Shown here piece after piece: positions 27,291 to 64,000 of a stretch of DNA of 64,000 bases. The position numbers were made by a program, and so were the translations under genes. The DNA comes from Psammoneis japonica (lineage: Eukaryota), in contig QPGO01000094.1 in NCBI GenBank assembly GCA_008632985.1, positions 106,721-170,720 on the forward strand. The letters are read 5' to 3'. A model generated the notes under the pieces. That model made no database searches and had not been told where the DNA came from. It saw nothing but the letters and a program-made list of their open reading frames with translations. The stretch's first letter is position 1. Each line of letters begins with the position of its first letter.

Positions 27291-27349
27291 GTCAGCATGG
27301 TTGTCATTTCAAAACATTTGTTCCAACTCCAGCAGCTGACAATGAGCGT

Positions 27350-35695: not shown

Positions 35696-35804
35696 TGACA
35701 GACATCCGAGACGGGGAGTACACTCCCTTGTGTCGGACAGACTAGCATAGACAGCATGGAGAGATCCGATGATCTCTCCTTTGCTCACTTTCTTTCTCAT
35801 CTAG
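35696..35804 (+). mobile_element. Solo LTR of the copia element found in unit 2
   Basis: Identical to 51677-51785 and 58569-58677. Its left flank matches the 5' LTR flank and its right flank matches the 3' LTR flank. Confidence 0.93.
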
Positions 35805-36113
35805 TAGGCAACGGCACAAGACCGCCACGTGGACCACCGCCGCCTCCGCCCAGAAGCGACAAGACTACCACTAGCTAGAGCGGGTCCACCACCCAAATAT
35901 GACAGGGCAAGAAATTTGACGACTTGCATTTCCACCAAGCCTTACAATCCCAATGACTATATCATTGAAACGAGAAAGCGTTGGGTCAATCCTCGGTTCT
36001 TGACGCAACAATGAGGGGTGGGGTTCGTATTTAGAAGCTAGAAACTTCTTCTCTCTAGCCAGCTAGCTAGCGAACTAAGTAGCTGTCTTGTTGTTGCTGT
36101 AGCTCCTCTTTGG

Positions 36114-36556
36114 ATGTTGCTGCGATGTCCTCGAGCCATTCGGAATCGAGACCGTGTGAAAATTGCGCCACTCGCGACGCAAACCGTTGGTGTGGCTTTA
36201 TTCTTTCCGCCATACTTTTACGTCTATGAGGCTTTTGAATCATTGATGGCGCTGAGGGGTAAGGTCACGGCCTTTGAAAGTGTAACCGAGAAGAATCTGT
36301 TACGAAATTGTGCACTAACGTCATTTTGTTTTTCTTTCGTCACGACTTGGAAAAAAATTTATGAACAGTTCCTGTAATGGCGAACGCTTATTTGAATTTG
36401 AAGGAGCAGATTGCGTCGGTGCTTTTGATGCAGTACTATATCTGGCCCCTGGCAAACTGGATAAATTTCACCTATGTGCCGGAAAATCTTCGTGTTCTGG
36501 TCAGCAACGTTGTCGCCGTTTTCTGGAATGCACTGTTGTGTACCCTGGTTGCCTGA
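36114..36556 (+). other. 5'-truncated Mpv17 copy fused in frame to an upstream ATG at the repeat junction
   Basis: MLLRCPRAIRNRDRVKIAPLAT followed by QTVGVALFFPP...; the intron and second exon are retained. Confidence 0.55.
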
Positions 36557-40900: not shown

Positions 40901-40980
40901 TAGTAAGATTCAGCAGAGCCGGCATTTCGACGCTCTGACAGATTTTCCGGCTGCGAGACGCTAGCTCTGTTCGAAGACAT
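37937..40980 (-). CDS. Copy 2 of the triple CxHC-domain gene; a 1-nt deletion near 40741 splits the ORF
   Basis: ttcaatcatccc here versus ttcaaatcatccc in units 1 and 3; a real lesion or a homopolymer error. Confidence 0.8.
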
Positions 40981-43900: not shown

Positions 43901-46900
43901 AATGACTCCACAGCATGAAAGATTGCTGTTCATTTTCATTGCCCCACCATCAATTTCTCCTTCACCTTTCTTGGTGTGGGAAGCATGTTTGCAATGCATC
44001 AGAGGAAAACTTTGTGAAGACAAGGAGGAGAAATTGCTCCTCCACCTTTCTTGGCACCGGAAACATGTTTGTGATGCATCAGAGGAAAACTTCATGAAGA
44101 CAAGGAGGAGAAATTGACGATGGGGCAATGAAAATGACATGCACTTCTTCGGACACATCATCATTTTTCATTGCAATGCACTGCCTTTGCTGCAGTGTGA
44201 AAAATGATGTGTTTTGCCGATTTGTCGGCAATTTTTTCATGTTCGTGGCCGGTTGAAGGAAAAGAGAAAAAAAGAGGGGATTCGACCATTGAACACACAC
44301 ACAATTGACCATGCAACCAGGGCCAGAGTTGCGCTGGCTTCTTTTGGTCCAGGGTGGTTGCTGCAGGTGCAAAGAGATGTGACACTGAGTGTGTGCCACC
44401 AAGCTGAGCAGCCCAGCTTGGGTGTCAGAGCCAAGCCCTGCCAGGCCAGCTGCCCTGGCTCCAGCTCTGCTCCTCCCAGTGTGCGCGAATTGTTGAAGGA
44501 GCACCACATTGACTCAAAGGCTGTGTTTTAAGTGGGCAGAGAGAAAAAAACTGTCATCTTGACTGGTGCTTGCTTCAGACCCTGCATCATGAGTGCAAGC
44601 TCCTCTTGAGAAATGAGTGAGAACAGCCATTTTTGGTGCCTCTCTTTGGTTGCCCACTTGGCCGCATTGCCAACAAATCTTGAACCCAACTTTGCTCACA
44701 GTTTCTTCACTCTTCAACCACAAAACAAATGGTGGGCACATGCCATGTGGCTGCTTGGCAACAAGAATGTGGTGCCAAGCATGTGCTGCACACCAAGGAG
44801 CCAAGCAGCCCAGCTCAGCTTTGAATGGAGCCCCAGGACAGCAGCCAACTCTGGGTGATCTCAGCATGGTTTGCTTGTTCAAGCTGTGCTGCACTCACCC
44901 CACAATGCTCTGTGTTGTGGTGGCTTCTTGTTGCAAGCCGTGGCTGAGTCAGCAGCCAGCGCCAGGGGCCCATCTTGCAAAGGCCAAACACACATGTTGA
45001 CCCTGTGCAAAGCTGTGTGAGGGGCCAGGCACAGGAATTTGAAACAATGGCTTCACAGCCATTGGTCCCAAGTTGTCATTTGGTTGGGAGCCATTGCTGA
45101 GGGGCTGTGAAGTGAGGGGTTGGGAGCCCAGCCAGGAGCTCACACTCTGTCACAAAGTGCTGCCACAGCTGTCTTTGCATTGCAGCCAGCCAGGTGTGGT
45201 TGACCCCAAGTTGGTGCTTGATTTAGAGTGACTGCCAAGGAGCTGTGAAGTGTGGGGTTGGGCAGTCCAGCCAGCTCGCACTCTTTGCTGACAGCAGAAA
45301 GTGCTGTCGCAGCTGTCCTTGCATTGTGGTGCCAGCCAGGTGCACACATGGCCAGAGCAGCCTTGGCACGTCCTGCTGACAAAGCTGGCAAAGATGGCAA
45401 CTCTTGTGGTTGAGCCACCTGGCATGCAGGAGTTCTGGGCACACTCCTGGGAAGTCAAATGGGAAGGAGGGCTCAGCATTGCCGCCAGTGCCAGGCACAA
45501 ATGTCAGCTTGTCTTGAGAGAGATTTGAGCCCACACAGCCCCAAGTTGGGTGTCTTGGCTGGCAAGTTAGAAAGCATTCTTGAGCACATTCTGGGATGTG
45601 GGCAGCACTGTCACCAAGAGAGCTGCTCTGCAGAGGAAGAGGGAAACAGGCAACAACATTTTGCAAGAACTGTTTTGTGTCAATGGTTGGGTGGGATGGG
45701 GCAGCATCTGGACTTTGACGGAGCATTTGGTGGACAAAGCTTGAGCACAGAGAGCTGTCCACTCAAGCTCCACAAGTGGCACATTTCAAAGGTGACACCA
45801 ATGTGTTCATGCATCAACATGCCTCAAGCTGCAAGTCACACAAAAAACTGCCACCAACCTTTCTCAACCAACCACCATCATGGACAGAACAGGTCAAGAG
45901 GTTCGAAACAAGAGTGATTGCTTCATTGACTCTCTTCTTGTTTCATGCATTCAAGAGCTTGTTCTTGTCCTTCTCAGGTGTTTGTTGTGCATTGTTGTCT
46001 CTTTTAATTCAAGTGCAAAGAGGAGTCACTTTTCTTGTTTCTGTCTCTTGAGATGTTGTTGGTTGTTGAGTGATGCAATTTTTGTTGCTTGTCACATTTT
46101 TGGAAATGTTGGCAAACCCGATCACTGCTTGATTGTCAACCCATTTGCTGCTTTGAGTCTCCATGGCATGAAATGCCGCAACTCCAGAGCCCTCAATTGT
46201 TTCATCAAACGCAGTGCTTTGAAACACGTCCAACATCAACTCGACTCAGTTGAAATCCCAGTTTGTGGGTGATGAAAAATCACGAATGTCAAACAAATGG
46301 CTGTTTTCGACATCAAGATCCCCGAGTTCAATCCAAGTGTGGCGGCGCACCTCACAGCTTGTGGCCATGACGCACACAAGCATGCCTCATTGTTGTCATC
46401 ACATGTGCTCACATCGAAAATGCCGACAGATCAAAGTTCAGGAAAAGGATGGAGCGCAAATTCATTTGTGCATTCACCAGAGCGGCACTGGCGCAATGAC
46501 ACCTGCGGCAGAAGCGATCAAAAATCCTCACTCATCGTTGACATTTTGTGTTGCTCAGAATTTGAAATCTGACCACCACCGTCAAGCATTTAGCTTTCTT
46601 TGTGTCGAAGTGGAAATGACACTCAACGATTTACACTGACCATTTAGCTTTCTTTGTGTCGAAGTGGAAATGACACTCAACGATTTACACCAACCATTTA
46701 GCTGTACTTTGGCTCGAAGTCAGACAATGAGATTGGGTTATGGGCTTGTCGTTAACCAGCCACGAGCATGAAATCTTTACCGATTTGTCTCATCTACGTT
46801 CTGTGTATGTAGTATTCAGTATCATCTTGGTAATGTTTCCCGATTTGTCTCATCTACGTGAAGTCCTGCGCACTATCCTAGTACGGGAAACACATCTTTT

Positions 46901-47101
46901 TCATACTAAGGCAGTACGTTAAAAATAGAGTATGTAGAATTATACTGAACATTCTCCGTACTGAACTATCCGTTCAAATGGCGCGCCGTCGCTCTTGACA
47001 AACGAACGAAAAACCCCAAACCGCAGACAGCAAAAAACGTAAACACGCAACGTCGCTTAGCTTCCAGCTTCTTTGGTCCGGACGAGATACAATAGATAAC
47101 G

Positions 47102-50100
47102 ATGTCAACGAGGAGAGACACAGCGACGGGAGAGCATCTATCAGTCACACGTTCGGATGTCAAGATCAATTACGAAGGCGTAGTTAGCAAAGAAGAGTTC
47201 TACCGCAAGCACGATGAGCTTCTTCAAGGAGCCCATCAGATTTGCAAGACAATGAGCCGTGCGTCCGCTCGAGAAACAGTCCTGCTCATAGGACTGCTGA
47301 ACGACATCAATACAGCGGTTATCGCCAAGGGAGCCTACAATGATGCGGTGCAGCGGTTGGGTCCACTAGGAAAAATTCTTATGCCCGCCTGGAACACGAG
47401 AGAACATTGGCGCGCGGACCCCGGGGTTTCTTCTGGACTTCGTTTTGATACTCTGAAAAGGAAAGCAAGAGAAGTCTTGGTGATGGAGGACATATATGAG
47501 GTTGCCATCAGCAAAGCAAAGGAGATTCCAGACTGCAACATGAGAAAACTAAAGACGGCGATGTCGGCGTATTATTTCAGAGCGGAAAGCCTTGACCTTC
47601 TATTGCCATGCTCCGAGGTATCGCCGCCGGCAGCGACTGGAGAATTGGTGATGGCCGCCCAGAATCCTCATATTGGGATTCCGTCTTACAATTTTGTCGG
47701 AGGAGCGCAGCTTGGCCGCAATTACGGTCAAATGGAAGGAATGGTGAGATGTTTTCCAATGGTGATTGAAATGCAACGACAGACGCTTGAACGAGAGCGG
47801 GAGCTACGCGATCGAGCTGAAGCACGGCAGGCGGATCAACAAAAAAGGGAGCGGGAGCTACGCGATCGAGCTGAAGCAAGGGAGCGAGAGCTACGCGATC
47901 GAGCTGAAGCACGGCAGGCGGATCAACAAAAAAGGGAGCGGGAGCTACGCGATCGAGCTGAAGCAAGGGAGCGAGAGCAACACGATCGAGCTGAAGCACG
48001 GCAGGCGGATCAACAAAAAAGGGACGAGCAGAAAGAAGCCAAGTATCGCCAAGAGACCGATCGGGCGAATAGCGCCCACATCAACACCTTGCTCAAGCAA
48101 AACAACATCGCAAACGCGCAAAACCAGAAGTTGTTGGGGCTGATGACGAGCGAGTTTGGGAAGATCAGCAAGTCTTTGGACATCATCACTGAGCAAGGAC
48201 AAGAATCGGAACAACGTCAGAACCAGATATTGATGACTGTGAAGAAGCCACCAAATCCTACCCTCCGCCCTTCTTTCACTGGTGATAATGATGGAGTTCG
48301 CAATCTCTTTCATGATCAGGTGAGCAAGCAAAAGATTGTGTTGGTTGTCGTCCTGTGCAGCATTATCAAATATATTCACCCCCGTTTTGTCTTTATTCTA
48401 CTCTACAATACGTGTACAGGTATCCAAGGATGACTCGTCCACGCCCGACCAGAATAAACCTGGTGCAAAAGGTGTTGATAAGCCAAATGATCCGGAGTCG
48501 TTCAAAACTCCCATGACCAAGTGTGCTGTTGGGAATAAGGTACGTAGCCAAGCCACATTTATGTTATCGTCCTGCGTTGCCTCTTTGTATAATGTTACCG
48601 CATCAGATTTATTCACGCCCTTTTTTGACTTCTGTTCTACTTATGAAGGCCTCATTGGACGATGGTGCGAAAAGCTCCGGTCTCGGTGCGCCAAAGAACA
48701 TTGGAATAAGGTATGCAAGCGTCCACTACGTATCGTCCTGCTTTGGCTCTGGTATCATTAACACATTTATTTAACCCCGTTGTGCTTTTATCCTACTCTC
48801 TAGCTGGAGTTCGGCATGTCCCCTCCCATGGACGATCTTGTCGACCTAAAGGATGACGATGACTCAGTTGTGTCCGTCACTTACTTGTCGACGTCCAGTG
48901 TCAGAAAACCCCCGTCATTGGACGACGGTGCGAAACGCGCCTGCACCGGCACGCCGAAGAATATTGGGAATAAGGTATGCAAGCTATCACTACTACGTAT
49001 CGTCCTGTTTTGACTCTTGTATCATCATCACATTTATTCACCCCCATTGGGCTTTTATCCTACTATAGCTGGAGTTCGGCGTATCCCCTCCTCCTTCTCC
49101 AACCCTGGACGACCTTGTGAAGCCGAACTTGTTGAACGAGATGTTCAACACCTGCATGACGGAGGAACGGGAGTTCTTGCCACAGAAGCAATTGGAGAAA
49201 CTGGAAGGCGTTCACGAAGAGGTTTTGGAGGGTGGGTTCACATTTCCGCCGGTACTGTGCAGCGACCCAGACATAAGCCTTTCTAGGCTTGCTTCAGCCC
49301 TGGGCCAGAACAACGACAAGCGGCCCACTCTAGGAAGCGTGGTGTTTCGATTGGCCGACTCCTTCCTATACTTTTCGGAAAATGAGGTCGACCCGTCCTC
49401 CTCAATGGAAGAGGATGATTCTCTAACTTTGGCAGTGGCATTCCAGGGCATGAGGTATCGTGTGGCCAATTCAATTGAAATCTCATTTCTCAACGGCGAT
49501 GAGGCCACAATTGAACTCGTAAGCATGGATCAGTTTGGATCCTCTGAGGCTTTGAGTCGCCTTGTGGAGACGCTGGTAGGAATTGAGAGCATCGAGAAAC
49601 TCACCTTTGCCAGTTCTGTGCGCAACGGCACCACTGTGCTTCCGATCAAGGCGGACGCTTTCAAGAAGCTTGCGAACGCTTCATTCACGATAGAGCTTCA
49701 GGCGGTCGACCTGACTGATGAGCAACAGTACATGTTGGCGAGAAGCAGCGCACCTTGGACGTTTGACCGTTGCAGCTGGAACAATAATGCTTTCCTTTTC
49801 ACAGGGCATGCTCGTTTCACTGAGTCGCCTTTGAAGCTCAGATTCGTTCAAGGATTGCTCTCCAGCAACGGTGATGTCAAAATAGGCCTTGGAAACCTCA
49901 CGCGAATAACAGAGGCTGGCAAACTGGGTAGCCTTCATATCGAGCGCCTAAAGCTACAGCAGGGAGAGGAGGAAACATTCAAGGCACTCTACGACGCAGC
50001 CAAGGAGAGCGATTGTAATTTCACCTTCAAAGATGTCGCGCATGAAACGCTAGGCTCGAAGGGGCTGAGAAAGTTCGTCGAGATTCCCAAGCTTGGAACC

Positions 50101-51078
50101 GCGGTCATGCCTCCGGCAGAGACAGCAGCCAATTCTTTTTCCGCAACAATGCCGACGGCCGACAAGTCATCCGCGTCCTCGACAGTTGACAAGAAGGAGG
50201 ACGCCGCTCCGACACCCGCACCAGCTGCCGCAGCTGATGGAGAAAAGGTATGTCTGTTTGATGTCTCCATCATGCTGTTAAACGACAGAGCTTCTAACGC
50301 GTGTCTCGATTTTGTTTTTTCCAATTTGCAGAAGAAAGCACATGTTACTTCGGCGTTCACCGCCGAAAAACAAGCGGTCGAGTCCACCACCGCCAACGAG
50401 AAGATTACTTTGATTTTCAGGGAAAAGGCAATGAAGAAAAAAGTTACGGTCAATTGCAAAGCCACCATGCAAGGCGCTTTCAATGCATACAAGGAGGGAA
50501 GAATTGATGTAAAGTCTCCCGACCAGTTTATCTTCAAGTTCGACGGCTTTGAAGTCGAACCTACGTCAACACCAGAATTGTTGAAGATGGCGGACGGCTA
50601 CATGCTTGACGTGGAAGTCAAAAAAGGCACAAGGGTGCAAGTTCAGCATGAGACCATTGAAATATTGGATTCCGATGAGGATGAGACGGTGGAACCCACT
50701 CGTCCGAATGTTGTCGAGAAATGTTTCATTAGCGGCTGCATGTATCCCGAAGTCTCAGGAACTCACAAATGCCATCTCAAGAGCTGCGAAAACCACATTC
50801 ATCATCTTTGCGCTGATTACTATGATCTGCGGGTCGGAGAGGAGCTTAATGTGTATTGTTGCCGCGAGCACCTTATTTCCGCTGAAGGCGATGAAGCTGA
50901 CGTGGACAACGCGAAAGGAGACGAAGGCATTGACGCGGACGAAGCCGGCGGCCTACTAGCAGCAGAGGATGAGAAAGCCAAGTGCGCCGGGGTAACCCTG
51001 AAGGGCACCCCCTGCCAACGTTACCCCTTGACGGGGGAACAGTACTGCAAGGACCATGGAGAAACATCTGAATTATGA
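47102..51078 (+). CDS. Copy 2 of the SUMO-like-domain gene; 1-nt deletion in exon 3 (~48703)
   Basis: Same ORFs as 31120-35097; attggaataag versus attgggaataag. Confidence 0.75.
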
Positions 51079-51676
51079 GCACGAGATTGTATCTCGTCCT
51101 CACAGTAGATAGCAATTGAAGTGTTGTGACTTCAGTTGGGAATATTATAAAATCAATAAACTCATTATTGCAAATCAAATCACCACTGTAAGATTCTAGA
51201 CTATGACACTAGACTATTACAACAAATGGACAGACGTAGAGCCCATAGTCAAGGGTGACAAAGGCCAATCGCCCTGCCGGTACAGCAGTTGTATTCCTCT
51301 GGTAGTGCGCTTTGTCTTTGGGCAGAGGAGGGTGTCTCGTTTATTGCTACTTCCGGATTCCCAAGGCAACCCCTTCCATGTGGCCCACATTCGCGTGTCT
51401 GTTGAATTCGATTTCGCTACACCTTCACTCCAGTACAAGTTGCAAGACGTGCAATTGCTCGTGGAACCCTATGCCATTTCTGTTCAGGGTGTGGCTCACT
51501 TTCTCCAGGGTTTTTTTCTCCACCATAACAACGAATTGCCACAATCCTCTCCTCGTCCTGCACAGAGGCAAGACTTTTCTAGGAATCATGGGACGCCAAG
51601 AAATTTGTCAAGGACACGAGTAGTACGGGCTTGTCGGCGGCGCTTCCAGAGGAACAGACAGATCTATTCCAGAATG

Positions 51677-54600
51677 TGACAGACATCCGAGACGGGGAGT
51701 ACACTCCCTTGTGTCGGACAGACTAGCATAGACAGCATGGAGAGATCCGATGATCTCTCCTTTGCTCACTTTCTTTCTCATCTAGCAGTACACGATTATC
51801 ATCTGTCCTAGATATCCGTTAGATTGTCCCGATGCCGCTAGTCCATGAGGTTATGAGCAGCAGTGCGCTGTTCCTCTTCCTCTGTGCTCATCTGCTGCAA
51901 CGCCTGTTGTGCGATTTGGCAACCTTTTCTTCGTTGAAATTGTCATCATTGTCACAGCTGTTTTTTCACCTCTCGATTTGTGATCAAACGACCACCGTAG
52001 AACACATGCCAGAGCTCTACATAGAAATTTGATTTTTTTCCCGCGCAACCATGGCGCCAACTGAGCAAACTTCCGTCGATTTGACCAAGATCAAGTCGAC
52101 ACAAGTCGAGTTCAAACAGCAAAATCGCTTGCCAGATGCCCGTCATTGCCTGAACGTCCTTCATTCCGACGAGACACCTGCTCCCAAAGAACTTCTGGAT
52201 AGATTTGCTCCTCAAGGCCTCAAGAGCAATGCCATCGCTGTTCTCTGTCATGAGATTGTTCATGACCTCATCATCCCCAAGGCTGCGTTGACCAAAGATC
52301 TCACACGGATTGGACCGCTTGTGGTCAAAGCTCCTCTCTTTGTGGCTGCTCCTGAAGCTCCTCCGGTTCGTCCCAACCTTGGCAATCTTCAGAAGGCCAT
52401 GATTGGGGTGATCTCAGATGGTCAAGATGCCATGACGGTCCATGTTGAGACTGTCAGTCTCTTCTTTTGCCCTGGTCTCGAGAGTTGTCTGTGTTGGGAT
52501 GATGTCTCTGCTGCTCCACACCCACCGTCAGCGACTCCTCCAAGATCTACATCTCAGTCGACCACTGCTGCAGGTCCAACTCCTGAAGATTTTGCCAAGG
52601 CCTCAGCCACTCATTTGCCTGGTCCAAAACAGTTTGAGCAAGCCATGACAAACGCACCGAAGAGCTCTGCTCCCAAGGTGTCGTCTCCTGCACCGTCTGC
52701 CATGACTGCCACTGGCGCGGCTTCTTCATCAACTGCTGCCAGCGTCACACACACCTTTAATCTAAAAGGACTTCCAAAGGATGTGCTGGCCCGCTGTCAG
52801 CGCAAGGAAGCCGGCAAAGCAGCACTTGGCAAATCTCTGGCACACCCCACAAGTCTGGAAACCTTTGTTGCGAGGATGGTGCTGAGCATCTCATCCTTGC
52901 TGATGGTTCACTCTTTGTTCATCATGCTGACTGGGACGCGAAGTCATTCCTCTGTGATCCTCTCACTTGTGATGACATCTCTCCTCAAGGAATCCGTGCA
53001 TGGCACATCACTGCAACCCAACAAGCCTCGGCTTGTGGTGTGTGCATGCATCCTCTGTGGTGTTTTATCAAGGATGGTGGAAATTGGGGTTTTGCCTGTG
53101 GAAATGATCCAACAGATGATCTGCCTCTCTGGATGACAGCAGCACTTGACCGCATGAAACTGACTGTCTTCCAGCACATTCAGAAAGTTGGAATTTTTCC
53201 GGCAGACTCCAAGCACCCTGACGTCGTTCGTCAATGCTGTGGTGATGGACATGCGGCTGTCAAGATGATTCTCTTTGACATCCTGCCGATTTGGACGAAG
53301 CACCCGCATGAGTTGATCAAGAGTCACCCGCACAAAAACAATCTTGCGGTCCTTGGCTGTCATGCTCCATTCAGAGACTGCCTCCAGCTGCGGGCTGTCA
53401 TCTCCAACGTTGATGCCTCTCTTGATGACCCTGGTGAGCTTGATGTTTTTCTCAGCAACACCCGCTGTGGCGAGTGCCTTCACCGTAAAACAGCGGATGC
53501 CCAGGAAGACAAGACCAAACAACACAAGTTCACCCAGAAGAAGATTGTTGAAACTGTTGGTGCGATTCTCAAGGAACTGGATGGCCCAGCTCTGCGTGTC
53601 AAGGAACCTCCCAAATGCCCTCCACATCGTCTTCACACATCGCCTCCTCCTCCTCTCGCTGCTCCTGTCCGCGGTCTTGACTCACTTCCCCAAGATGAAG
53701 TTTCCACTCCGCCTCCAGCGATTGAAGAGCCACCCAAGGTGCCTGACTCTCCTCCTGCGGAAGAGCCTGCGGAAACTGTGGAGCATTTTGTGAATGAATT
53801 TGCTGCTGTGGATGTTCCTGTAGATGATGATGCACAAGCCCTCCATGGTGTCTGCAAGGCCTGCATCTGTCGGATCAAGTCCTCGCCTGCCATTGCACAG
53901 AACTGTCCATGTGTTGTTTGTGGTGACAACCACTTGTTCCATGAGTGTCCTGTGTTGAACAATGCTGAGTGCCTGCACACCCATCTCATTTGGTTCTCCC
54001 AGTTTCTTCAACGTGACCAGCGTGCTTGTGATGCACTTGCGTCTGGCACGGCCAAGAAGGATTTTTCCCAGGGCCATTGTTGTGTTCGGACAAACAATGC
54101 CGCCCATTCTCCTCCAATCCGAAAACTCCTGCAAGCGGGGCAACTGTGAAAGAGGGTCCAAACGACTCGTTGCCTTCCGCTGATCCTCCTCTTTCACCTG
54201 TCTCATTTGCTGCCCTTCTTTCGAGCCCGACGAAGGCTGGTGCTCCTGATCCCAAGATGATTCCTGATGACGACCCTGGCAATCATGATCAGGGGAGGGA
54301 ATTCGATCCTCCCACATTGGATGCTGATGCTCCATTGTCCACTGATCAAGACCAAGCATTTGAGCATCTTGATGTGACTGACACCCAGCATTTGTTGCCT
54401 CTCAGTGCCGTGCGCATCTCCCCGATTTTTCTCCCCCGGAGTCACCTGCGACCTTTGCATCCTTGGCTGCCCCAGTCATTCCCATCAATCATGTGCTTCG
54501 TGATTCAACGACACATCGTGCACAGATTGATGCTGGTGCTTGGGCATCCTGTGCAGGGGACAAGAACCTCCTCCACGCCTGTGCTCCTTTTGGACTGGAC

Positions 54601-57600
54601 AACCCATGCCCTTTGAAGATGCTTCCGGCTGCTGAAGGCTCTGATGCGGCTCCTCATGGCTTTGGTTGCCTGCAGGTGCCTGCAGACAATCCTGAAGGCT
54701 TTCTTCTCGTGCGCACTTTTTATCATCCCAGTCTGCGTTCCACTTTGATTGATGAACGTGATTTTGCACGGGCTTCTGGTTTCAAATCTCAGTCCATTCG
54801 CTCCGAGCTCCTTGAGAAAACATGCGCCGACGGCACTTGCACTTGCGCTGCTTCCACTGATGCACAAGCGGCAGTTGTCCATGGTGTCCTTCGACATGGC
54901 AAGGTGTTCACACAACCCCTGGTTCCTCCGTCTCCGTCTGGCACCCCTTCGACATCAACGACCCCCAACTTGTCCTTGGTTGATGACATTGATGATGCAT
55001 GTCAACGTGCAGTCTTTTTTGTCAATGTCCAACAAGGTCCATCTGATCCCTTGCTGATGGATGCTGAGCTGTTTTTGATGCAGTGTGACTCGGCTCCGTT
55101 GTCCACCCCTGCTCATGTCCGCTCTCTCAAGGTTGAGACTGAACGTCTTCTGTGGCATCAATGCCTTGGACACCCCAGTGATCACTGCTTGTACAATGCT
55201 CACAAGTGCATTGAGGGCGTCCCCAAGTTCCGTCATGCCAATCCTGTCCTTGACACATGCCCTGCATGCATCCAAGCCAAGCAAGTCAAGACTCCTGCTG
55301 GACCGAACACGACTCGGAAGGCGACCCAACCATGCCAAGGTCTCACTGTTGACTTTGCTTTTGCTGGTCAGACTTCCAAGAATGAAGCCCGCAAGGTTGA
55401 TTGTCTTGGACACAATGGTGAAACATGTTGGATTGCTGTTTATGATCATCACACGTGGATGCTCCATGGAGCAGCGAGGGTTTCAAAGGCCAGTCCTCTC
55501 AAGTGGCTTCGCCGATTCTTGGATCGACATTCACCAAATTGTCGTGATGAACATGTGTTTGTGGACCAAGGTGGGGAATTGCACAAAAACCCCAAAGTTC
55601 GTGACCTCTTTGAACGAGAATTCCAGTGTGACATCTGTCCTTCTGGCGCTGGTGCATCCAACCAATGTGGGCCTGTTGAACGCTCACATTTTGCTGTTGA
55701 AAACGCGATTCGTGCGATTTTAATTGGTGCCAACCTTCCGATCCGATTCTGGCCCCATGCATTTTACCACTGCCTCCGCATCAAGAATGCCACTCCTGCA
55801 AAAGATCAAGATGTGGCACCCATCACTCTTGCTGCTGGAAAGGTCAAAGATTTCACCACTCTGAAGACTTTCGGATGTCGAGCATGGTCCAAACGGTCCA
55901 CTGCTTGTTCTGCTGCCTTCCGGACCAATTCCAAGAAGAGTGTCTTCCTTGGTTGCCTTCCCAACACCCTCAAGAATGTCATGTGGTGGGATCTGAGACT
56001 GATGAAGTCAAGACAGCCAAGCATGTGTGCTGCGATGAAGGCACGAATGACCCATTTTTGGATCAACTCCCTCCCAATGCTGTCCATTTACAGCGTGTGG
56101 AAAATGGTCAGCCTTTTCCAGCTGAAACACAGGACACCACCATTCCTGTGTTCACGTCTTCGTCGAATCCGTTTGCTGCGACTGTTGCATGCACCATGAA
56201 ACGTCCTCCAAAGGACCCCACTTGTGGTTTTGGATTTTCTCAGTGTGCGCCAATGGACCGTGTCCATGTGTTGGAAATCAAGCAGTGCAGTCCTGCGGCT
56301 TCATTGTTTTCTTCCCTCCGTGCTGCTTGCAACAAGATCATGGGTGCATGCGTTGTCTCTGTCAACAAGCGTGAAGTCTTTACTCCTTCGGATGCTGAAG
56401 AGGCCTTGTCTCAGGTCTTCCAAGATAAAATTCCGACTTTCGAGATCACTTTTGCGCCGGAACGACGACTGGATTCTCGCACCCTTAACAAGGCATTTGA
56501 GGAAGCAGAGTCATTTGAACCTGACACTGTGGAGGACGACTCTCATGTTCCTGAACTTACTTTGGAAGATGTGCGATCTATTGTGGCTCTTCTCTGTCCC
56601 GATGATGATTTTTTGGATGAGGCCATTCCTGCGGATGTCTTTTGTGCACATCTCAATGCGATTAGCTCCTGCTCCCTCACTCCGGAGGAAGCTGCTCTTG
56701 ACCGTCTCACCCGTGCCAAGCTTCGTAAACTTGACACATGGCCTGAATGGGAAGAAGGCGAGCAGCGTCAACTGGACCAATTTCATGCCCTGGGTGTGTG
56801 TGGTCCTCCGCAACCACATCCCCCTGGCGCGAACGTCATGCGTCCGCATTGGGATCACATGGCAAAGCCGGATGGGCAACGTTGTTCCCGACAATGTGGT
56901 GATGGTTCCAAGTTGGCAATGCCGGCCTTGCACAAGTTGACGTCCACCCATTTGTCGTGTGTGGAACGTTCCATCGAACAGATGTTTTTTGCTCTCAGTG
57001 CAGCTGTGTCGCATCGTGTCTTCGGCGGCGATGCACGGGATGCCTGCGCTCATTCTCCTGGCCCATCCCAACCGGTTTTTGTTGCTGTTGATGATGCATG
57101 TGCTGTCTGGCATGAAAAGAGATTTGGCAAGAAAGCACCCCGCCCTTGTGTTCTTCTGCTCAAGCATGCTTTTCAAGGCCATCCTGAAGCTGGTGTCCTC
57201 TGGGAGAGGCACATCAACTCGATTCTCATGGGTGCGAAACTTCTTTTCCGTAACACCACTCATGACAAGTGCATCTGTTCCGGTGAGTGTGATGGTGTCA
57301 AGGTCCTCCTCCTTCGTCAGGTTGATGATTTTGCTCTTGCTTGTCCATCTGAAAAGATTGCGAAAGAGATCTACGACCATGTTGGCAGGGCTCTCCAGAT
57401 GGAGAATGAGGGTGCTCCTCCCTTCAAGTGTTTGGGCTTGGTCACTGAATTCAACGGCATTGATGTCTTTCAAAATGACGACTCAATCACTGTCAACGTT
57501 GCCAGCTGCCTTGACCGTGTTTTCAAGACCCATGGTTGGGATGCTCCCGCTGCACATGAGTCTGATTCTGATTTCAAGGCTGCACCTGTTCCGGTTGATT

Positions 57601-58677
57601 GCACTCCTGATCTGTGCACTGCTGAAGGTCCTGAAGAGGGTGCACCCGAGTGTGACACTCTTGCTGAGTCCCAAGGATTCTCGCGCCATTCTGTCTTGGG
57701 TGAATTGGTCTTTGCCTGCTCCTGTTGTCGTTTGGACATTGGCCATCCCATTGTCACCTTGTCCAAGTTTTCCAAGGCACCAGCTGAGCTCCATTGTGAA
57801 TCACTCAAGCGTGGCCAAGCATTTGCGGCGCACCAAACATTGGGGGCTAACCCACAAGAAGTCTAAACGCGATCCCGGCCTGCCTCCTCACGATTTTGAA
57901 TGGCTTGAGGATGACCCATCTCTCCCGGATTTTCCTTGTGCTGTTGACCTTTTCCAACTTCTTGGCTTCATTGATGCGGCACATGGCGGTGAACCATGGC
58001 GTCGCCGTTCTGCTGCTGGGCACGCGCATGTCCTTGCTGGTGCTGCGATTGACTGTCGATGCTGCACGCAAACGATTGCCGCCACTGGTTCCATGGAAGC
58101 TGAGTTCCTCGCGGCTGTTGCTGGTGCAAAACAGACCCTGCACCTCCGCATGGTTCTGGAAGAATCGGGCTTTCCCCAGCGTGATCCTGCTCCCTTGCAC
58201 ATTGATGACTCCTCTGCCATCCAGATGATCAACAACAAGGTGCCTACGGAGTGATCCCGTCACATTGACATTCAACATTTTGCTGTCCAAGACTGGCATG
58301 ATGCAGGCAAGATTGTCACTCGACATGTCCCGGGTGTCATCAACCCTGCTGATGCACTGACCAAGGCCGTGGGTTGGACACTCCATTCCCGCCATGCCCG
58401 CCGCTTGATGGGACACTGCCGTTGATTGTCATCGGGTTTTGTTGTGGATTGAGTCTTGGGTGTGTCTCTGTTTTATTTGTTTCTTTGTTCTGCTGTTCTG
58501 GTCCTCTCTTTTTATTCGGATCGTCTCTTTCTTTCTTGTTGAGCATTGCATTGCTCATCAGGGGAGGGTGACAGACATCCGAGACGGGGAGTACACTCCC
58601 TTGTGTCGGACAGACTAGCATAGACAGCATGGAGAGATCCGATGATCTCTCCTTTGCTCACTTTCTTTCTCATCTAG
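51677..58677 (+). mobile_element. Ty1/copia LTR retrotransposon, internally complete but inactivated
   Basis: Identical 109-bp direct repeats starting TG; PPT aggggaggg before 58569; PBS-like GGTTATGAGC at 51849; domain order gag-PR-IN-RT-RH. Confidence 0.96.
52051..58425 (+). pseudogene. Copia gag-pol with frameshifts, a stop and pervasive Tyr to Cys/His changes
   Basis: Knuckle CVVCGDNHLFHEC; protease AQIDAGA; LWHQCLGH; integrase VDF...VDQGGEL...GPVER; RT QGHPEAG and RQVDDF; RNase H FIDAAHG, EAEF, HIDI and NPADALTK. Confidence 0.93.
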
Positions 58678-58986
58678 TAGGCAACGGCACAAGACCGCCA
58701 CGTGGACCACCGCCGCCTCCGCCCAGAAGCGACAAGACTACCACTAGCTAGAGCGGGTCCACCACCCAAATATGACAGGGCAAGAAATTTGACGACTTGC
58801 ATTTCCACCAAGCCTTACAATCCCAATGACTATATCATTGAAACGAGAAAGCGTTGGGTCAATCCTCGGTTCTTGACGCAACAATGAGGGGTGGGGTTCG
58901 TATTTAGAAGCTAGAAACTTCTTCTCTCTAGCCAGCTAGCTAGCGAACTAAGTAGCTGTCTTGTTGTTGCTGTAGCTCCTCTTTGG

Positions 58987-59429
58987 ATGTTGCTGCGATG
59001 TCCTCGAGCCATTCGGAATCGAGACCGTGTGAAAATTGCGCCACTCGCGACGCAAACCGTTGGTGTGGCTTTATTCTTTCCGCCATACTTTTACGTCTAT
59101 GAGGCTTTTGAATCATTGATGGCGCTGAGGGGTAAGGTCACGGCCTTTGAAAGTGTAACCGAGAAGAATCTGTTACGAAATTGTGCACTAACGTCATTTT
59201 GTTTTTCTTTCGTCACGACTTGGAAAAAAATTTATGAACAGTTCCTGTAATGGCGAACGCTTATTTGAATTTGAAGGAGCAGATTGCGTCGGTGCTTTTG
59301 ATGCAGTACTATATCTGGCCCCTGGCAAACTGGATAAATTTCACCTATGTGCCGGAAAATCTTCGTGTTCTGGTCAGCAACGTTGTCGCCGTTTTCTGGA
59401 ATGCACTGTTGTGTACCCTGGTTGCCTGA
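58987..59429 (+). other. Second junction copy of the truncated/fused Mpv17 ORF
   Basis: Same sequence as 36114-36556. Confidence 0.55.
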
Positions 59430-62400
59430 TTCTTGCAAAGCCTCCAACAAGCTAGCATGTGTTCTGGTTTGTTTATGCCGTAGCTTCTTTGCACGACTTG
59501 GTACACTGGTCTCTCAAATCTTCATCTTGACTGCCTCTCAATACCAGAGATGAGCTACTGCACCTCAAATAGACCTACGCTACGTCTCATTTCGGCGTTT
59601 AAGTTTGCTACCAACAATACAGAAAGAGGGGGGTGTATTCAAGCCACTGAGATAGCCGTCGCCGATCCTTGCATTCTTGTTCATCTTGAAAGTAGAAAAG
59701 AGGCGTTCAATCTTTTGGAGGGCGCTGGTTTTTCCAAGTCGAATCCGTACTTTAGTACAACAGGGCAAAGTACACGTGCTCTGTACCATGAGTGCTGGCA
59801 AATGGCTCGCTCTGCTCAAACAAGTGGTGGGGTCGACTCTCTATGAAGCGGCTCTAACAGGAAAATCTCGATCGAGTCACCTCTTTGCCACTAGACCGCC
59901 TCGTGACGGAACCGTCAACCTTCCCGACGGTCCCGATGTTATGTCTCTTCTCGAACATGTATTCGTTACGTCCCTTAAGTCTTCTCGGCTATGCGTCATG
60001 TCTTTGCCAAGAGACTCTTGGCTCGCAGTGTCGGTGTCGTTTACACTTGAGCACTCGGTGCAAAATGGATGCCATTACCTTGGAGGGTGACTTGTGCGGC
60101 CTTAAGGGAGCCTTGACGGGCGGCTGTGCCGCTTTCGCGCACACGGGCCAATGCGTCCCTCTAGAGTAGCAAACGGAAAGGGAGTGCCAGGCCGCCAAGA
60201 ACAGGGCGCAAGAGATTGATCATACCCCCACCAATCTCATGAGCGAGTTGCAGCGGTTAGAAGCCAGACAAGCCGATCTCAACCACATTCTGACCGATTT
60301 GGAACGCAAGGCTGAAACGCTGCAGCACGACATTACCTCGCGCATCACTCTAGCCGACAAGCTTTGAAAAATGGATTTCCTGGCGTTGGAACGTGACATG
60401 GACAGTTTGGCCAAGCACGTGGAATGGTTGCAAGAAAAAAAAATGAAAACCGAATGACCGCCACCTTGTCGGATGAGGAGCGTGCGACGCTCCAAGAGCT
60501 CAAGCCTTCGCAGCAGGAGCTTTCCAAGAAGCTCTAACGTCAGGGGAGCGTTGTCGATCATCTCGGGCGTTGCTTGTTGAACCGTTGATTGTAAAAAAGT
60601 AGGCCTACGGAATGGTAGTTAACAAGGGAATTCAGGGTAGAACACGTAGTAGACGGCGGCTTGCAGAGGAGCCGCAAAATTTGCAAAATTGAACTAAGAT
60701 GACAGATTCAAAGATGGCAAATTTTGACAATACGTAGCTAAGTAATTTAGAAACACACAGGTCGTACCAAATACCCACCTTTGTTGTTCCCCGTCTTGCT
60801 AAAAGGTACCTAAACCGCATACAACGATGTTTCGTTGACCGCGCTGTCAACAACCTCAGGCACAGACGCACTCTCATCCTGATTACGGTTGGAGTCTTCA
60901 GCAGTCACTGCCTTATTGTCTTCTCCATGAAGCCGCTTCCATACACGAGCAAAGAAAGCCTTTTGAGATCCTGTCTTCAATCGATTGGTTTGCTCCTTCC
61001 TTAGTTTTTTGAGCTCAGCAAGGTTTGTTTTTAACGCCGGTGGCGCAAATTCGCAACTCATGACATGTGTGTGGACGCTTACAAAGTTGGATTCAACAGC
61101 ATTTACAGATGACCAAAAGAACTTGCGACTCTCAACTTGCCCAGCACAGTGTTTGCACTCGACTCCAATACATCCGACATCCTTGAGACGTCTTTTGTTC
61201 CTATCGGCTTCAGTGAATCGACACGGCTGAAGCTGCTCCATCACGACGTACAAGAAATCCGCAATGCAGTTTCGATCTTCAGGAAGAACAATTGGCTGAC
61301 TTACGGAGGTGACGTCGGAAGCTACCTGGGCAAGAATATCTAGTGACACTGCCGGAGCTGTTGGGGTGGACGGATCGCGTGAAAATCGGATGCCTTTGTC
61401 GGTATCCACCAATCCTATCTTTTTTGCGGAAGTAATCCAGTACTGTCTAGTTGCGAGTCCTTTCGATCCCTTGGTACTGGCGCTTTGCAAAGAAAGGAAA
61501 CGCTGACGGATGTCCTGGGGCACCATCTTGCATTCACCTAGATGAAACCTTTGAATGTCGGCCACGGACTGGTAAATCCGAGAAATAGAAAATGGGAAGC
61601 ACACTGCTCTATTCGATCTTTCCTTAGCAGGAAGCGAGTGGCAGTGAATGCATCCGATACCGACTTGTCCCAATACAACAGAAAAGGTTGTGGGAGTCCT
61701 TACAGCAATATCCTCCTCGGTCGCACTAAAGGCGCAGACATTCTCGCGTAGAAAACAACGAAGCGGACTCAACGCCATCTTGTCTTCTGAAAGAGATAGC
61801 TTGATTTTGCCAGTGAAATCCGTCGTTGTGCTGCCTTCGTCCTGCGCGGATGGGGCGTAAGAAGACGAATCGCTTGATAGCGCTGACAATATAGAGTGAA
61901 GCGCTTGAGGAGACATGTCCATCGCGTTACCCTCCGAAGACTTCTCCTTCTCTTCCTTGGACGCCGTATCGTCATTCCCACGGACCATCTTCTGAGGAGA
62001 CGACGACGAGCCATCAGAGGAAGATGAAGGGGATATCTTGCTCGTAGAATTCGCTAGTGGTCGGGCTACCGTGGGTTCTTCGCCCGCCTTGAAACGGACG
62101 CCAGATGGCCCATCAATCATTCCCATTTTGGTTGCAGACTTGACAAAGTATTGCATCGTTGTGCCAGTGCTTCTTGTCTTTACTGCCTTCAGCTCCTCCA
62201 GATGCTCCTTTAGTGACGAAGGAACAAACCGACAATGTTGAAAATGATCAAGTTTCATGTCAATCACCGTTCGATAGATGCGCTTGATTGATGAAGGATA
62301 GCATACTGCTCGCTTGACACGGTCGCTGGTCCTCTCAGTATGACGACAATGGATACACCGAAGGCCAACCTGACCTACAACAACAGGATGCTTGCGCCCA

Positions 62401-64000
62401 GGAGCAGGAGCTTCGACATCGCTTGTAGTTGCCGTAAATACTTCAATGTTTTCACGTATAACACAGAGGGTCTCGCTAAGAGATATTCGATCTTCTGCTT
62501 GAGCCAGCAACAAAAGCGATTGATTTGTGGAGTTGACCTTGGCTGTTTCGTGACTTTCTTTGGAAGGGTGTGCGCCGTCCATGTATGAATACATGCCCGT
62601 GCTAGTCATTGATGCCTGACGGAGCAGCTCAATCGGCGTAGGGTCACAAAGGGGTCTGGAGTGGGTGGACGTTGGCACACTTTGAACCACGTTGTGGCAC
62701 ATCTTGTCTGATTCTCCACCGTTTGAATCAAACGTAACTTGACGTTGAACGGATGATTCCAGCGACAAAGAGAATGGAATCCCGCTATTGTTGTACCTTT
62801 CATTTGACAGAGTCGACAATGCACCCACTTCGTCACGAGCTTGAATATCCGACCCTTGAAATGATCCACCCCAATACTCATTTCTATTTTGATAATTGGG
62901 AGATGTTGGCGAAGGATACCATGGCGATGACCCCCACCCTTGGTGCCTGTCAGATTCATGCTGTCGACCGGAGATCCGCATCCGACTACCGACGGAAGGT
63001 TGTGAGCGCGCTGTAGGATAGAAGCTGTGTTCATGGGAACCCATTGATTCATCACGAGGTTTGTTCCAGGAAATGCTTGCTTCTCGATTACCTTCGCGGC
63101 GCTCTGATGTACTTGGATGAGCCCCGTGCTGGTCCCACATCGCTAAATCTTGAGGTGCACCCCCAAAATGGGTTAGATTGTACCGATTCCTCATATCTAG
63201 ATCTCCACGCGTTCCTCTGGGTATCATTGTCTTGTACTCTCGCCTGCTGTCTTCCTTAAGCTTCATTCGCTTTGGTGGAATGAACGCCGGATGAATATGT
63301 TGTGTCTGGTATTCATCTCCCGGCCGACTATGATGCCAAAAGTTACGTTTAAGCTTCTCTGGCCCTTTGTCTTTGGCTTCTTCTCCAACATATGATACTG
63401 GTGGTGCTTCGGCTGGGCTTGGGGGTATCTTAACTGGTTCGTTCCCCGTTGAGCGAGGAATCCATTCACGCCCAGACGCAACATTATGATTCTCGTAGGG
63501 ATGCCAATGATCATCTTGACGGACGGATTCGGCGAGGTGACGGCCATCACCCCTGCTCTCATAGCGATGTTCTACCGCTCTTTCTGGGCGATACGCACGT
63601 GAATTGGTATTCAAATCATCCCTTTCGTCGTCAATGCTAAAAGATGAAGTGACCACAGCTTGCAGCCGTCGCGGTGTGCTGGGTGTAGGCCTAGGATACG
63701 ACGTATCTTGCTTCTGATCAATAGGTGAAGGGTACTTTGACAAGTTTGGATATTCTGAATGCTCCCCCATCGGATAGTAAGATTCAGCAGAGCCGGCATT
63801 TCGACGCTCTGACAGATTTTCCGGCTGCGAGACGCTAGCTCTGTTCGAAGACATGGTTTTTCAACTGATGAAAGGAACGACAAGAAAACAGTAACTAACG
63901 TGTGTTAGTCACGACAACTTGAGTATCTCAAGTTAGCACGACATGAGTCTCCGACCACTTTTTTCTCTCTATGCTAGACAGAAAAAAAATCCCGCAGGTG
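59053..64000 (+). repeat. Tandem segmental repeat, unit 3 (runs off the window)
   Basis: Same junction and gene order; carries more substitutions relative to units 1 and 2. Confidence 0.97.
60810..63854 (-). CDS. Copy 3 of the 1014-aa triple CxHC-domain gene, intact
   Basis: Full ORF with about a dozen amino-acid differences from copy 1, e.g. RPER/RSER, QDLA/QDFA, TRQY/TRHY. Confidence 0.9.
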   Translation of the reverse strand: MSSNRASVSQPENLSERRNAGSAESYYPMGEHSEYPNLSKYPSPIDQKQDTSYPRPTPSTPRRLQAVVTSSFSIDDERDDLNTNSRAYRPERAVEHRYESRGDGRHLAESVRQDDHWHPYENHNVASGREWIPRSTGNEPVKIPPSPAEAPPVSYVGEEAKDKGPEKLKRNFWHHSRPGDEYQTQHIHPAFIPPKRMKLKEDSRREYKTMIPRGTRGDLDMRNRYNLTHFGGAPQDLAMWDQHGAHPSTSERREGNREASISWNKPRDESMGSHEHSFYPTARSQPSVGSRMRISGRQHESDRHQGWGSSPWYPSPTSPNYQNRNEYWGGSFQGSDIQARDEVGALSTLSNERYNNSGIPFSLSLESSVQRQVTFDSNGGESDKMCHNVVQSVPTSTHSRPLCDPTPIELLRQASMTSTGMYSYMDGAHPSKESHETAKVNSTNQSLLLLAQAEDRISLSETLCVIRENIEVFTATTSDVEAPAPGRKHPVVVGQVGLRCIHCRHTERTSDRVKRAVCYPSSIKRIYRTVIDMKLDHFQHCRFVPSSLKEHLEELKAVKTRSTGTTMQYFVKSATKMGMIDGPSGVRFKAGEEPTVARPLANSTSKISPSSSSDGSSSSPQKMVRGNDDTASKEEKEKSSEGNAMDMSPQALHSILSALSSDSSSYAPSAQDEGSTTTDFTGKIKLSLSEDKMALSPLRCFLRENVCAFSATEEDIAVRTPTTFSVVLGQVGIGCIHCHSLPAKERSNRAVCFPFSISRIYQSVADIQRFHLGECKMVPQDIRQRFLSLQSASTKGSKGLATRQYWITSAKKIGLVDTDKGIRFSRDPSTPTAPAVSLDILAQVASDVTSVSQPIVLPEDRNCIADFLYVVMEQLQPCRFTEADRNKRRLKDVGCIGVECKHCAGQVESRKFFWSSVNAVESNFVSVHTHVMSCEFAPPALKTNLAELKKLRKEQTNRLKTGSQKAFFARVWKRLHGEDNKAVTAEDSNRNQDESASVPEVVDSAVNETSLYAV

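Follow-up and report, generated by a model that had tools for sequence, protein, structure and literature searches.

The window analyzed here is a single stretch of 64,000 nt (64 kb) from contig QPGO01000094.1 of Psammoneis japonica, and all window results below refer to it. At positions 51677–58679 it carries what is in all probability a dead Ty1/copia retrotransposon in a diatom genome, the internal 6.7 kb of which is almost devoid of the dinucleotide 5′-TA-3′ (TpA). We conclude, with a probability of roughly 0.8, that this internal part underwent TpA-specific hypermutation, a process confined to repeat or foreign zones and distinct from the decay of CpG. The evidence comes from the composition of the element, the fate of its conserved tyrosines, two further TpA-purged zones in the window and a second copia family found in metagenomic contigs.

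TpA and CpG composition of the element

The purged internal region (51853–58567) contains 30 TpA, corresponding to 0.45% of its dinucleotides and an observed/expected ratio (O/E) of 0.078; approximately 230 would be expected at the background O/E of 0.60. In two genic blocks of the same window, TpA O/E was 0.60–0.61 and CpG O/E was 0.95–0.96. When TpA O/E was profiled in 1-kb steps, values of 0.02–0.14 were found inside the element, versus 0.39–0.93 in genic DNA. The edges are sharp: TpA is dense through position 51852 and becomes dense again from 58592. TpG and CpA are in excess, with O/E of 1.66 and 1.44, respectively, in the internal region and 1.44–1.92 across the purged zones, and the G+C content of the element is 0.518, versus 0.49 in the background. 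The depletion is equal in all reading frames, in non-coding parts and in gene-free zones.

An initial annotation of this DNA, made from the sequence by itself, had described a TpA-poor copia element at 52051–58425 in which CpG largely survived. Over that interval, TpA O/E is 0.07 and CpG O/E 0.58, and over the internal region as defined here the values are 0.08 and 0.59. CpG is indeed still common, but it is partly decayed rather than intact (0.59 versus 0.95), and part of this drop probably follows from the gain in G+C alone. The loss of TpA is separable from CpG decay, as the annotation had held: CpG O/E is 0.59 where TpA O/E is 0.08, and metagenomic copies that lack TpA keep CpG O/E of 0.63–0.95 (see below). 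The suggestion that TpA loss comes before CpG decay fared less well. Every CpG-poor zone of the window is also TpA-poor, as it predicts, but the two losses are unrelated in the metagenomic family.

A change of TpA to TpG or CpA creates no stop from a sense codon, because TAA can yield only TGA or CAA, and TAG only TGG or CAG. Counted on both strands, TAA and TAG together occur at 5.4 per kb in the element and at 2.8–5.4 per kb across the purged zones, versus 35 per kb in genic DNA, while TGA occurs at 49–54 per kb in the purged zones versus 37–39 per kb in genic DNA. The many long open reading frames (ORFs) in all frames, and the presence of a single in-frame stop in pol, fit the loss of TAA and TAG. 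The codon logic, the low TAA/TAG density and the lone TGA in pol all bear out the earlier proposal that the change, which would disable proteins by missense, creates no new stops from sense codons.

Fate of conserved tyrosines and direction of change

The stop-to-stop ORF that contains the reverse transcriptase (RT), at 55701–57866, encodes 721 residues, or 663 from the first Met. The single Tyr reported in the 663-residue ORF was recovered on recounting (TAC at 57372), together with 44 Cys and 34 His. Two gag-side ORFs (52033–53136 and 52761–54149) contain no Tyr in 368 and 463 residues, respectively.

A conceptual pol translation of 1264 codons was aligned with 16 long relatives, and columns with Tyr in at least 60% of the relatives were considered conserved. 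There were 21 such columns, at which the copy has Cys (TGY) eight times, His (CAY) eight times, Trp twice, and Ser, Arg and Phe once each; no Tyr is retained. Sixteen of the 21 thus read as Cys or His codons, the outcome predicted for TAY changing to TGY or CAY, and the two outcomes are equally frequent, so that both strands were affected to the same extent. The possibility that intact relatives also carry Cys or His at these columns was checked and falls away, because the relatives hold Tyr there and the 40 top database relatives have 2.5–6.4% Tyr overall (and 1.2–3.0% Cys).

Six sequence motifs had been cited as places where Cys or His replaced Tyr. All six are present in the translations, and at four of them Tyr is the commonest residue among the relatives: the second Cys of DKCICSG (Tyr in 15/16), KHLRRTK (13/16), LGCLP (10/16) and DIGHPI (8/16). 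The remaining two did not stand. At the flagged site of ARDACAH, 12 of 16 relatives have Phe and a minority of four have Tyr, and at the flagged sites of GHAHVL Tyr was found in 2/16 and 0/15 relatives, which leaves a Tyr ancestry unsupported.

The change has a clear direction. Replacements of the type expected from TpA loss (Tyr to Cys or His; Ile to Val, Met or Thr; Asn to Asp; Lys to Glu; Thr to Ala; Met to Val; Ser or Arg to Gly; Val to Ala; Leu to Pro or Ser) number 36 in the copy, versus five in reverse, whereas eight control relatives, each treated in turn as the target, gave 2–8 forward and 6–11 reverse replacements. It is also specific to TpA. A codon ending in T precedes 15 of the 16 candidates for an A-to-G change at the first codon position (Ile or Met to Val, Asn to Asp, Lys to Glu, Thr to Ala, and Ser or Arg to Gly), and a preceding T was found at only 2 of 43 conserved A-initial codons.

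Structure and identity of the element

The interval originally annotated (52051–58425) lies inside the element, which is larger and is bounded by terminal direct repeats. Its features are as follows:

51677–51787, plus strand: 5′ terminal direct repeat, a putative short long terminal repeat (LTR); TpA kept
51788–51852, plus strand: leader after the 5′ repeat, with 7 TpA in 64 nt; outside the purged zone
51853–58567, plus strand: TpA-purged internal region, with 30 TpA in 6715 nt
52051–54149, plus strand: gag-side ORFs 52033–53136 and 52761–54149, in two frames; no Tyr, no Pfam match
54622–55992, plus strand: pol segment 1, frame 1, pre-integrase and part of the integrase (tblastn of 10 relatives, Pfam)
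55995–57812, plus strand: pol segment 2, frame 3, reverse transcriptase, within the 663-residue ORF (tblastn, Pfam, phmmer)
57811–58416, plus strand: pol segment 3, frame 1, RNase H part, with in-frame TGA at 58252 (tblastn)
58560–58568, plus strand: polypurine tract AGGGGAGGG, directly 5′ of the 3′ terminal repeat
58569–58679, plus strand: 3′ terminal direct repeat, a putative LTR; TpA kept
35696–35806, plus strand: solo terminal repeat, at the corresponding position one 16-kb tandem unit earlier

The initial annotation had treated pol as one RT-containing ORF. The 663-residue ORF exists, but pol is not a single ORF: colinearity with 10 full-length copia relatives (tblastn) places it in three frame segments separated by two frameshifts, with a single in-frame stop, the TGA at 58252. 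The order of domains is of the copia type, with gag_pre-integrase and SH3-like domains in ORF 54382–56199 upstream of the RT in ORF 55701–57866. The Pfam matches in the former ORF (PF13976, E 9.4e-6; PF25597, E 0.0022) are both under the curated cut-offs, as is that of RVT_2 (PF07727) in the latter (E 2.4e-4; 21.2 bits, with a cut-off of 31.6 bits). A phmmer search of 1.84 billion representatives with the 721-residue ORF returned 1816 relatives at E ≤ 0.001, of which the best (P0001) was 47% identical (E 2.1e-170); PF07727 is among the precomputed annotations of the copia relatives listed. Autonomy is without support, as the gag–pol frame is broken, gag is divided between two frames and pol has two frameshifts and one TGA. 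The copy at 51677–58679 is a dead member of the copia family.

The terminal repeats are 111–113 nt in length, which is unusually short for LTRs, and are 99% identical between the two ends. The three copies of the terminal repeat differ only by a TA-to-CA change at 51786 in the 5′ copy (compare 35805 and 58678), adjoining the purged zone. The 5-nt flanks of the repeats differ (GAATG and GGCAA), with no visible target-site duplication. No TGG-type primer site was found downstream of the 5′ repeat when the leader sequence was inspected. Longer LTRs obscured by transitions were not detected either: in purine/pyrimidine code, the LTR compared with the sequence before the polypurine tract scored 24, whereas shuffled sequences scored 22.5 on average and 34 at most. 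A self-BLAST of the window in the same code gave no hidden repeats beyond one inverted pair. A piece of the leader of approximately 50 nt (51793–51844) is itself a repeat, because contigs of a second sequencing run, X2, continue differently on both sides of it.

Other purged zones in the window

Two additional zones of the window are purged of TpA, one of which contains a segment that is also present outside it:

25344–30608, no strand: second purged zone, with 8 TpA in 5265 nt (O/E 0.023) and CpG O/E 0.23; duplicated at approximately 41324–46590
1–13400, no strand: third purged zone, extending beyond the start of the window, with 36 TpA in 13400 nt (O/E 0.038) and CpG O/E 0.15
27509–27587, plus strand: in-zone copy of a 79-nt segment; TpA sites changed
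30915–30993, plus strand: out-of-zone copy of the 79-nt segment; unmutated, with 11 TpA and 3 CpG

The block at 1–13400 is purged uniformly throughout. No domain identity could be assigned to the two zones, as none of their 47 ORFs of at least 110 residues has a credible Pfam match; the sole hits were YqaJ (E 0.0094) and PG_binding_3 (E 0.024). When 10 copia proteins were compared with the whole window by tblastn, they matched only the element at 51677–58679.

The 79-nt segment provides a direct comparison of mutated and unmutated DNA, the two copies standing 3.3 kb apart. Relative to the outside copy, the in-zone copy is changed at 11 of 11 TpA (six to TG and five to CA) and at three of three CpG (all to CA), and has one transversion. 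Again, the hits fell on both strands at similar frequency.

The second purged zone lies in a tandem duplication that spans 20194–64000, with a period of approximately 15,986 bp and units that are 99.2–99.7% identical; the third unit runs off the window. Segments 20194–35807 and 36180–51788 form a pair with 99.7% identity, and 35695–41128 matches 58568–64000. The two copies of the zone differ by two adjacent CA/TG swaps, at 28632–3 and 28636–7. Such a swap is what results when a single ancestral TpA is hit on one strand in the first copy and on the other strand in the second. Their other differences are mostly of the CpG type, and since almost no TpA is left, they say little about the TpA process. 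In the genic part of the 16-kb unit, which is present in three copies, only two of 37 polarized substitutions are at TpA, showing that the process is zone-specific. The copia element sits in the second tandem unit, and the solo terminal repeat (35696–35806) at the equivalent site of the first. Either recombination between the repeats removed the internal part from the first unit, or a solo repeat was already in place and the element inserted into it through homologous recombination.

A second diatom copia family in metagenomic contigs

Ten of 198 database relatives have less than 1.5% Tyr, and most of these read Cys or His at the conserved Tyr columns that they cover; ten controls keep Tyr. 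A scan of metagenome contigs that started from one low-Tyr relative, P0291, yielded 35 loci belonging to one copia family, with protein identities of 69–100%. The propionyl-CoA carboxylase gene that flanks one of them (L033) is 84–90% identical to proteins from Fragilaria, Seminavis and other pennate diatoms, and on the basis of this flanking gene the family appears to come from a metagenomic diatom closest to the pennates.

In the RT part of the 35 loci, TpA O/E ranges from 0.83 (L028) to 0.00 (L008 and L029), CpG O/E from 0.54 to 0.95, and G+C rises from 0.49–0.51 to 0.58–0.60. A site-based tally of 69 TA and 114 CG sites, which replaced a count against the single reference L028 that had inflated the "other" transitions, showed that the copies retain from 0.77 down to 0.00 of the TA sites and from 0.28 to 0.61 of the CG sites, the latter fraction not tracking the former. 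The two processes are thus independent. Locus L020 keeps 0.70 of its TA sites and 0.32 of its CG sites, and L008 (contig positions 1–5501), with TpA O/E of 0.00–0.04 and CpG O/E of 0.50–0.94 over all 5.5 kb, shows most clearly that TpA can be lost while CpG is not. What looks like gained CpA in L008 is probably CpG that was retained.

At the TA sites of fully mutated copies, TG and CA occur in ratios of 33:20, 29:24 and 26:13. Two copies separated by a transversion distance of 0.8% (L012 and L001) differ by 21 TG/CA swaps and 26 changes between TA and TG or CA, as well as 33 CpG-type differences, 21 other transitions and 13 transversions, while the least-mutated pairs have 0–1 swaps. Per-context rates of A-to-G change, polarized by an 80% majority, were uninformative, as almost no TA site has such a majority.

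Six database proteins (P0125, P0117, P0056, P0300, P0146 and P0042) also have less than 1.5% Tyr, with Cys or His at conserved copia Tyr positions. These are likely to be further hypermutated copies that were called as genes.

Copies in the organism's own reads

In sequencing run X1, which is available as short contigs and has a word depth of approximately 144 in the flank, a fraction of 0.55 of the 31-letter words sampled from 51600–58700 is present. X1 is possibly the source sample of the window, and it is therefore not independent support for its letters. At a likeness of at least 80%, 3272 X1 contigs fall on 51600–58700. Their summed depth is 1400–3000 over the element and higher at its ends, compared with 144 in the flank, which shows that the family is multi-copy.

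The places at which the X1 contigs differ from the window comprise 1505 transitions (A to G, 254; T to C, 411; C to T, 459; G to A, 381) versus 436 transversions, with 29–86 in each transversion class. Forty of these 1941 places were listed individually, and the 37 of them inside the element were examined. Two adjacent pairs are TG/CA swaps (54286–7 and 54966–7), five places have CA in this copy and TA in nearly all other contigs, two have TA in this copy and CA or TG in others, and six have CG in this copy and TG or CA in others; the remaining 20 are other changes.

Neighboring genes and short repeats

Each tandem unit includes several long ORFs, among them one of 1016 residues (21951–25001, minus strand) and one of 669 residues with a Rad60-SLD/SUMO-like domain (33088–35097 and 49069–51078). 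Short tandem repeats with units of 80 nt are found inside the purged zones, at 6698–6909 and 27970–28129; others are at 30605–30712 (unit 54 nt, at a zone edge) and 31811–32042 (unit 87 nt). An intron-free monogalactosyldiacylglycerol (MGDG) synthase gene (PF06925 and PF04101) at 14749–15939 is at most 78% identical to any database protein. Its best named matches, with up to 76% identity, are from diatoms such as Seminavis, and the host is a diatom.

Weighing the explanations

Several observations sit uneasily with TpA-specific hypermutation directed at silenced DNA. No close unmutated family member was found by phmmer among the 1.84 billion representatives or by a word-indexed search; the best relatives are only 46–52% identical, so that the ancestral DNA of the copy cannot be aligned directly. 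Within the same element, TpA survives in the terminal repeats (4–5 in each) and in the 64-nt leader (7), which a simple "silenced domain" model does not predict, and sharp edges that match the internal part of the element also fit editing before integration. The eight residual TpA of the second purged zone are identical in both of its 99.7%-identical duplicates, which means either that these sites are resistant or that the process is inactive there now. Outcomes in the metagenomic copies agree with a concordance of 0.59–0.93, not 0.5, so some mutated states must be inherited, or else the sites have a strand preference. Moreover, the RT part of one half-mutated copy (L005) shows 7 strand-coordinated runs versus 15.9 expected (1/2000 permutations). 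Single processive events might have left them, or the copy might be a recombinant; no such runs were present in 19 other copies tested.

The sequence context of the surviving TpA belongs with these points. With Y for pyrimidine and R for purine, 42 of the 74 surviving TpA in the three zones are in YTAR (18 TTAA and 13 CTAA) and two are in RTAY, whereas the background shares are 19% and 29%, respectively. In the metagenomic family, the fraction of TpA kept was 0.57 in YTAR, 0.43 in YTAY, 0.28 in RTAY and 0.25 in RTAR, although these sites are few and not independent. Residual TpA are also concentrated in TTAG. The mutator may favor certain sites, or some TpA may have formed anew from TCA or TGA.

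Two alternatives accept the change but explain it differently. TpA loss might be a passive by-product of heterochromatin, in which a repair deficiency peculiar to silenced, late-replicating DNA, or a base modification there such as an altered thymine or adenine that mispairs at TpA, makes TpA mutable without any evolved targeting. The same zones do lose CpG (O/E 0.15–0.59), as methylated, silenced chromatin would, purging is uniform over the 13.4-kb block with which the window begins, and the YTAR bias fits a sequence-selective modifying enzyme of any purpose. Sequence evidence cannot separate such a by-product from defence. However, a regulated activity is favored by the sharp edges, by saturation inside DNA whose flanks differ by only 0.3–0.8%, and by the episodic, line-specific activity reported for the alga Bigelowiella natans (see below), and we consider a passive origin unlikely. 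The other alternative is editing before integration, by an ADAR- or ADAT-like adenosine deaminase (adenosine deaminases acting on RNA and tRNA, respectively) working on the RNA or single-stranded cDNA of the element, so that copies arrive already purged. APOBEC and ADAR hypermutation of retroviruses is the model for such editing. In its favor, the purged zone is the internal part of the element and ends at the polypurine tract, close metagenomic copies have largely independent hits, as if each round of copying edits, and strand-coordinated runs like those in L005 are typical of single-strand deaminases. Yet the terminal repeats and leader belong to the RNA and cDNA too, and were spared. The outcomes are strand-symmetric (8 Cys : 8 His; 6 TG : 5 CA), whereas RNA editing of the genomic strand gives sense A-to-G changes only. 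Two of the purged zones lack a retroelement signature (0/47 ORFs), and within one of them is a mutated segment whose counterpart at a distance of 3.3 kb is unmutated. In B. natans, integrated DNA that is resident and single-copy acquires the mutations de novo. Taken together, this makes editing before integration rather improbable.

The other two alternatives would remove the need for a mutational process altogether, and we give them little weight. An assembly or base-calling artefact, in which a true TA that is modified in repeats is rendered as TG or CA, depending on the strand, by a long-read caller, would produce the roughly 1:1 ratio of TG and CA at former TA that is expected of strand-specific miscalls at a palindromic modified site. 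It is disfavored because the signature recurs in graded form in 35 metagenome contigs of other assemblies, with copy-specific, heritable differences. The X1 short contigs also hold more than half of the sampled words, though X1 may be the source sample, and the element has frameshifts and an in-frame stop besides. An artefact is therefore most improbable. Even less credible is a functional element adapted to avoid TpA (UpA in RNA), for example to escape RNases or to suit host codon use. UpA avoidance is generally known to be common in RNAs, and the pol frames are largely open, but none of the 21 conserved Tyr is kept, the Pfam scores fall under the curated cut-offs, pol has two frameshifts and a stop, gag is split, and the depletion extends equally to all frames, non-coding parts and gene-free zones.

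Proposed mechanism and consequences

We thus favor TpA-specific hypermutation. In this process, the self-complementary step TpA is converted to TpG or CpA, an A:T-to-G:C transition that hits either strand about equally often and keeps to sharply bounded zones of repeat or foreign DNA. In this window it finished sooner than the decay of CpG to TpG or CpA, and it is saturated here. Its consequences are the replacement of Tyr by Cys or His, together with changes at codon junctions (xxT-Axx to xxT-Gxx, as in Ile to Val, Asn to Asp and Thr to Ala), a rise in G+C and a near-loss of TAA and TAG in six frames, so that the element is left open yet crippled by missense.

We infer that the target is resident chromosomal DNA and not a replication intermediate. 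Action in place is better supported because the outcomes are strand-symmetric, because there are purged zones without a retroelement signature, and because mutated and unmutated copies stand 3.3 kb apart and close copies have independent hits. An enzyme is presumably responsible, such as an adenine deaminase or some other base-modifying activity recruited to silenced chromatin, in line with the proposal made for B. natans, and the process presumably serves as defence.

More tentatively, diatoms may possess a defence that resembles repeat-induced point mutation (RIP) but has the opposite chemistry: a double-stranded DNA editor, guided by chromatin or small RNA, that would convert TpA to TpG or CpA in place and faster than CpG decays, hitting RTAY, sparing YTAR and leaving the promoter-bearing terminal repeats untouched. 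We regard this model as possible, though short of an even chance. Since chlorarachniophytes, the group of B. natans, show the same signature, such a system would be old within the Stramenopila–Alveolata–Rhizaria (SAR) group or horizontally spread. If the model is true, it would explain unrecognizable algal repeats full of long spurious ORFs.

The phenomenon also bears on annotation. Gene callers may report purged elements as genes, because TAA and TAG vanish and frames open in six phases, and repeat content will be under-annotated because purged elements lose similarity to profile models. Dating by LTR divergence and CpG-based ages are unreliable for such elements. A TpA-specific A:T-to-G:C editor of double-stranded DNA, if natural, would be of biochemical interest, and it may constitute a transposon-disabling genome defence. 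Diatoms are a major, experimentally tractable group, in which the phenomenon can be tested with genetics and mutation-accumulation lines.

Comparison with known systems

RIP in ascomycetes requires duplicated sequence and a sexual cycle. Like the process described here, it produces context-specific transitions in repeats, with fairly sharp edges, inactivates transposons and leaves a dinucleotide footprint. However, RIP changes C to T, mainly at CpA, and so creates TpA and stop codons and lowers G+C, whereas here TpA is destroyed, G+C is raised (0.52 versus 0.49) and TAA and TAG vanish. Fungal RIP is ruled out by this opposite direction, with TpA lost, CA and TG gained, and a G+C of 0.518 in place of 0.49. 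We know of no sequence-degrading transposon defence comparable to RIP that has been established outside fungi.

ADARs, which to our knowledge are metazoan, prefer a U (T) 5′ of the edited A, and in this respect, as in the A-to-G change itself, they resemble the process seen here. RNA editing would, however, give A-to-G changes in the sense strand, whereas here both strands are affected, and zones that show no sign of a retroelement are affected too. Editing of RNA by an ADAR-type enzyme, fixed by reverse transcription, is ruled out, as T-to-C changes in the sense strand are as frequent as A-to-G (8 His, 8 Cys). CpG decay, which follows cytosine methylation in diatom transposons, occurs in the same zones and gives the same products, TpG and CpA, but it has another substrate and is an independent process: TpA-free copies have CpG O/E up to 0.95, and TpA-rich copies can be CpG-poor.

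The closest likeness is to B. natans. In mutation-accumulation lines of this alga, two integrated viral regions acquired 231 mutations, of which 230 were A to G or T to C, all of those at TpA, at rates approximately 1000-fold over background and with hypermutation in some lines only. TpA-depleted coding sequences in B. natans are enriched for reverse transcriptase and DDE domains, and Mettrop et al. suggest that a DNA adenosine deaminase resembling ADAT2 is responsible and that the process has a role in defence (bioRxiv 10.64898/2026.01.13.699255). Their preprint, of which a part was available, also cites the preference of ADAR for a 5′ U (T). A search of the full-text literature, with subscription-only papers and preprint supplements outside its scope, turned up neither TpA-specific hypermutation nor TpA-depleted transposons reported from diatoms; two candidate papers (PMC7884421 and PMC4504042) are, in their accessible portions, unrelated to TpA hypermutation.

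As far as the available part of the preprint allows comparison, both systems show A-to-G and T-to-C changes at TpA only, giving TpG or CpA on either strand, in foreign or repeat DNA within a normal background, and both show TpA depletion with CpA and TpG enrichment in clusters of 1-kb windows. The systems differ in host, a chlorarachniophyte (rhizarian) there and a diatom (Stramenopila) here, and in target, an integrated giant virus or virophage there versus an LTR retrotransposon and unidentifiable repeats here. The B. natans viral region keeps 3.3% TpA (Rho 0.45), whereas here the loss is saturated, with 0.45% in the element and O/E of 0.02–0.08. Here, too, the loss coexists with CpG decay, and what we see is a historical footprint alone, versus mutation rates measured there. 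Spared terminal repeats and YTAR survivors are seen here and are not described for B. natans in that part of the preprint (bioRxiv 10.64898/2026.01.13.699255). The Bigelowiella-type signature is thus already known, from a single 2026 preprint on one rhizarian alga and its integrated viruses; new here are the diatom host, the LTR retrotransposons, the saturation and the coexistence with CpG decay. The window and an independent metagenomic family show the same chemistry at saturation in diatoms, which widens its phylogenetic range.

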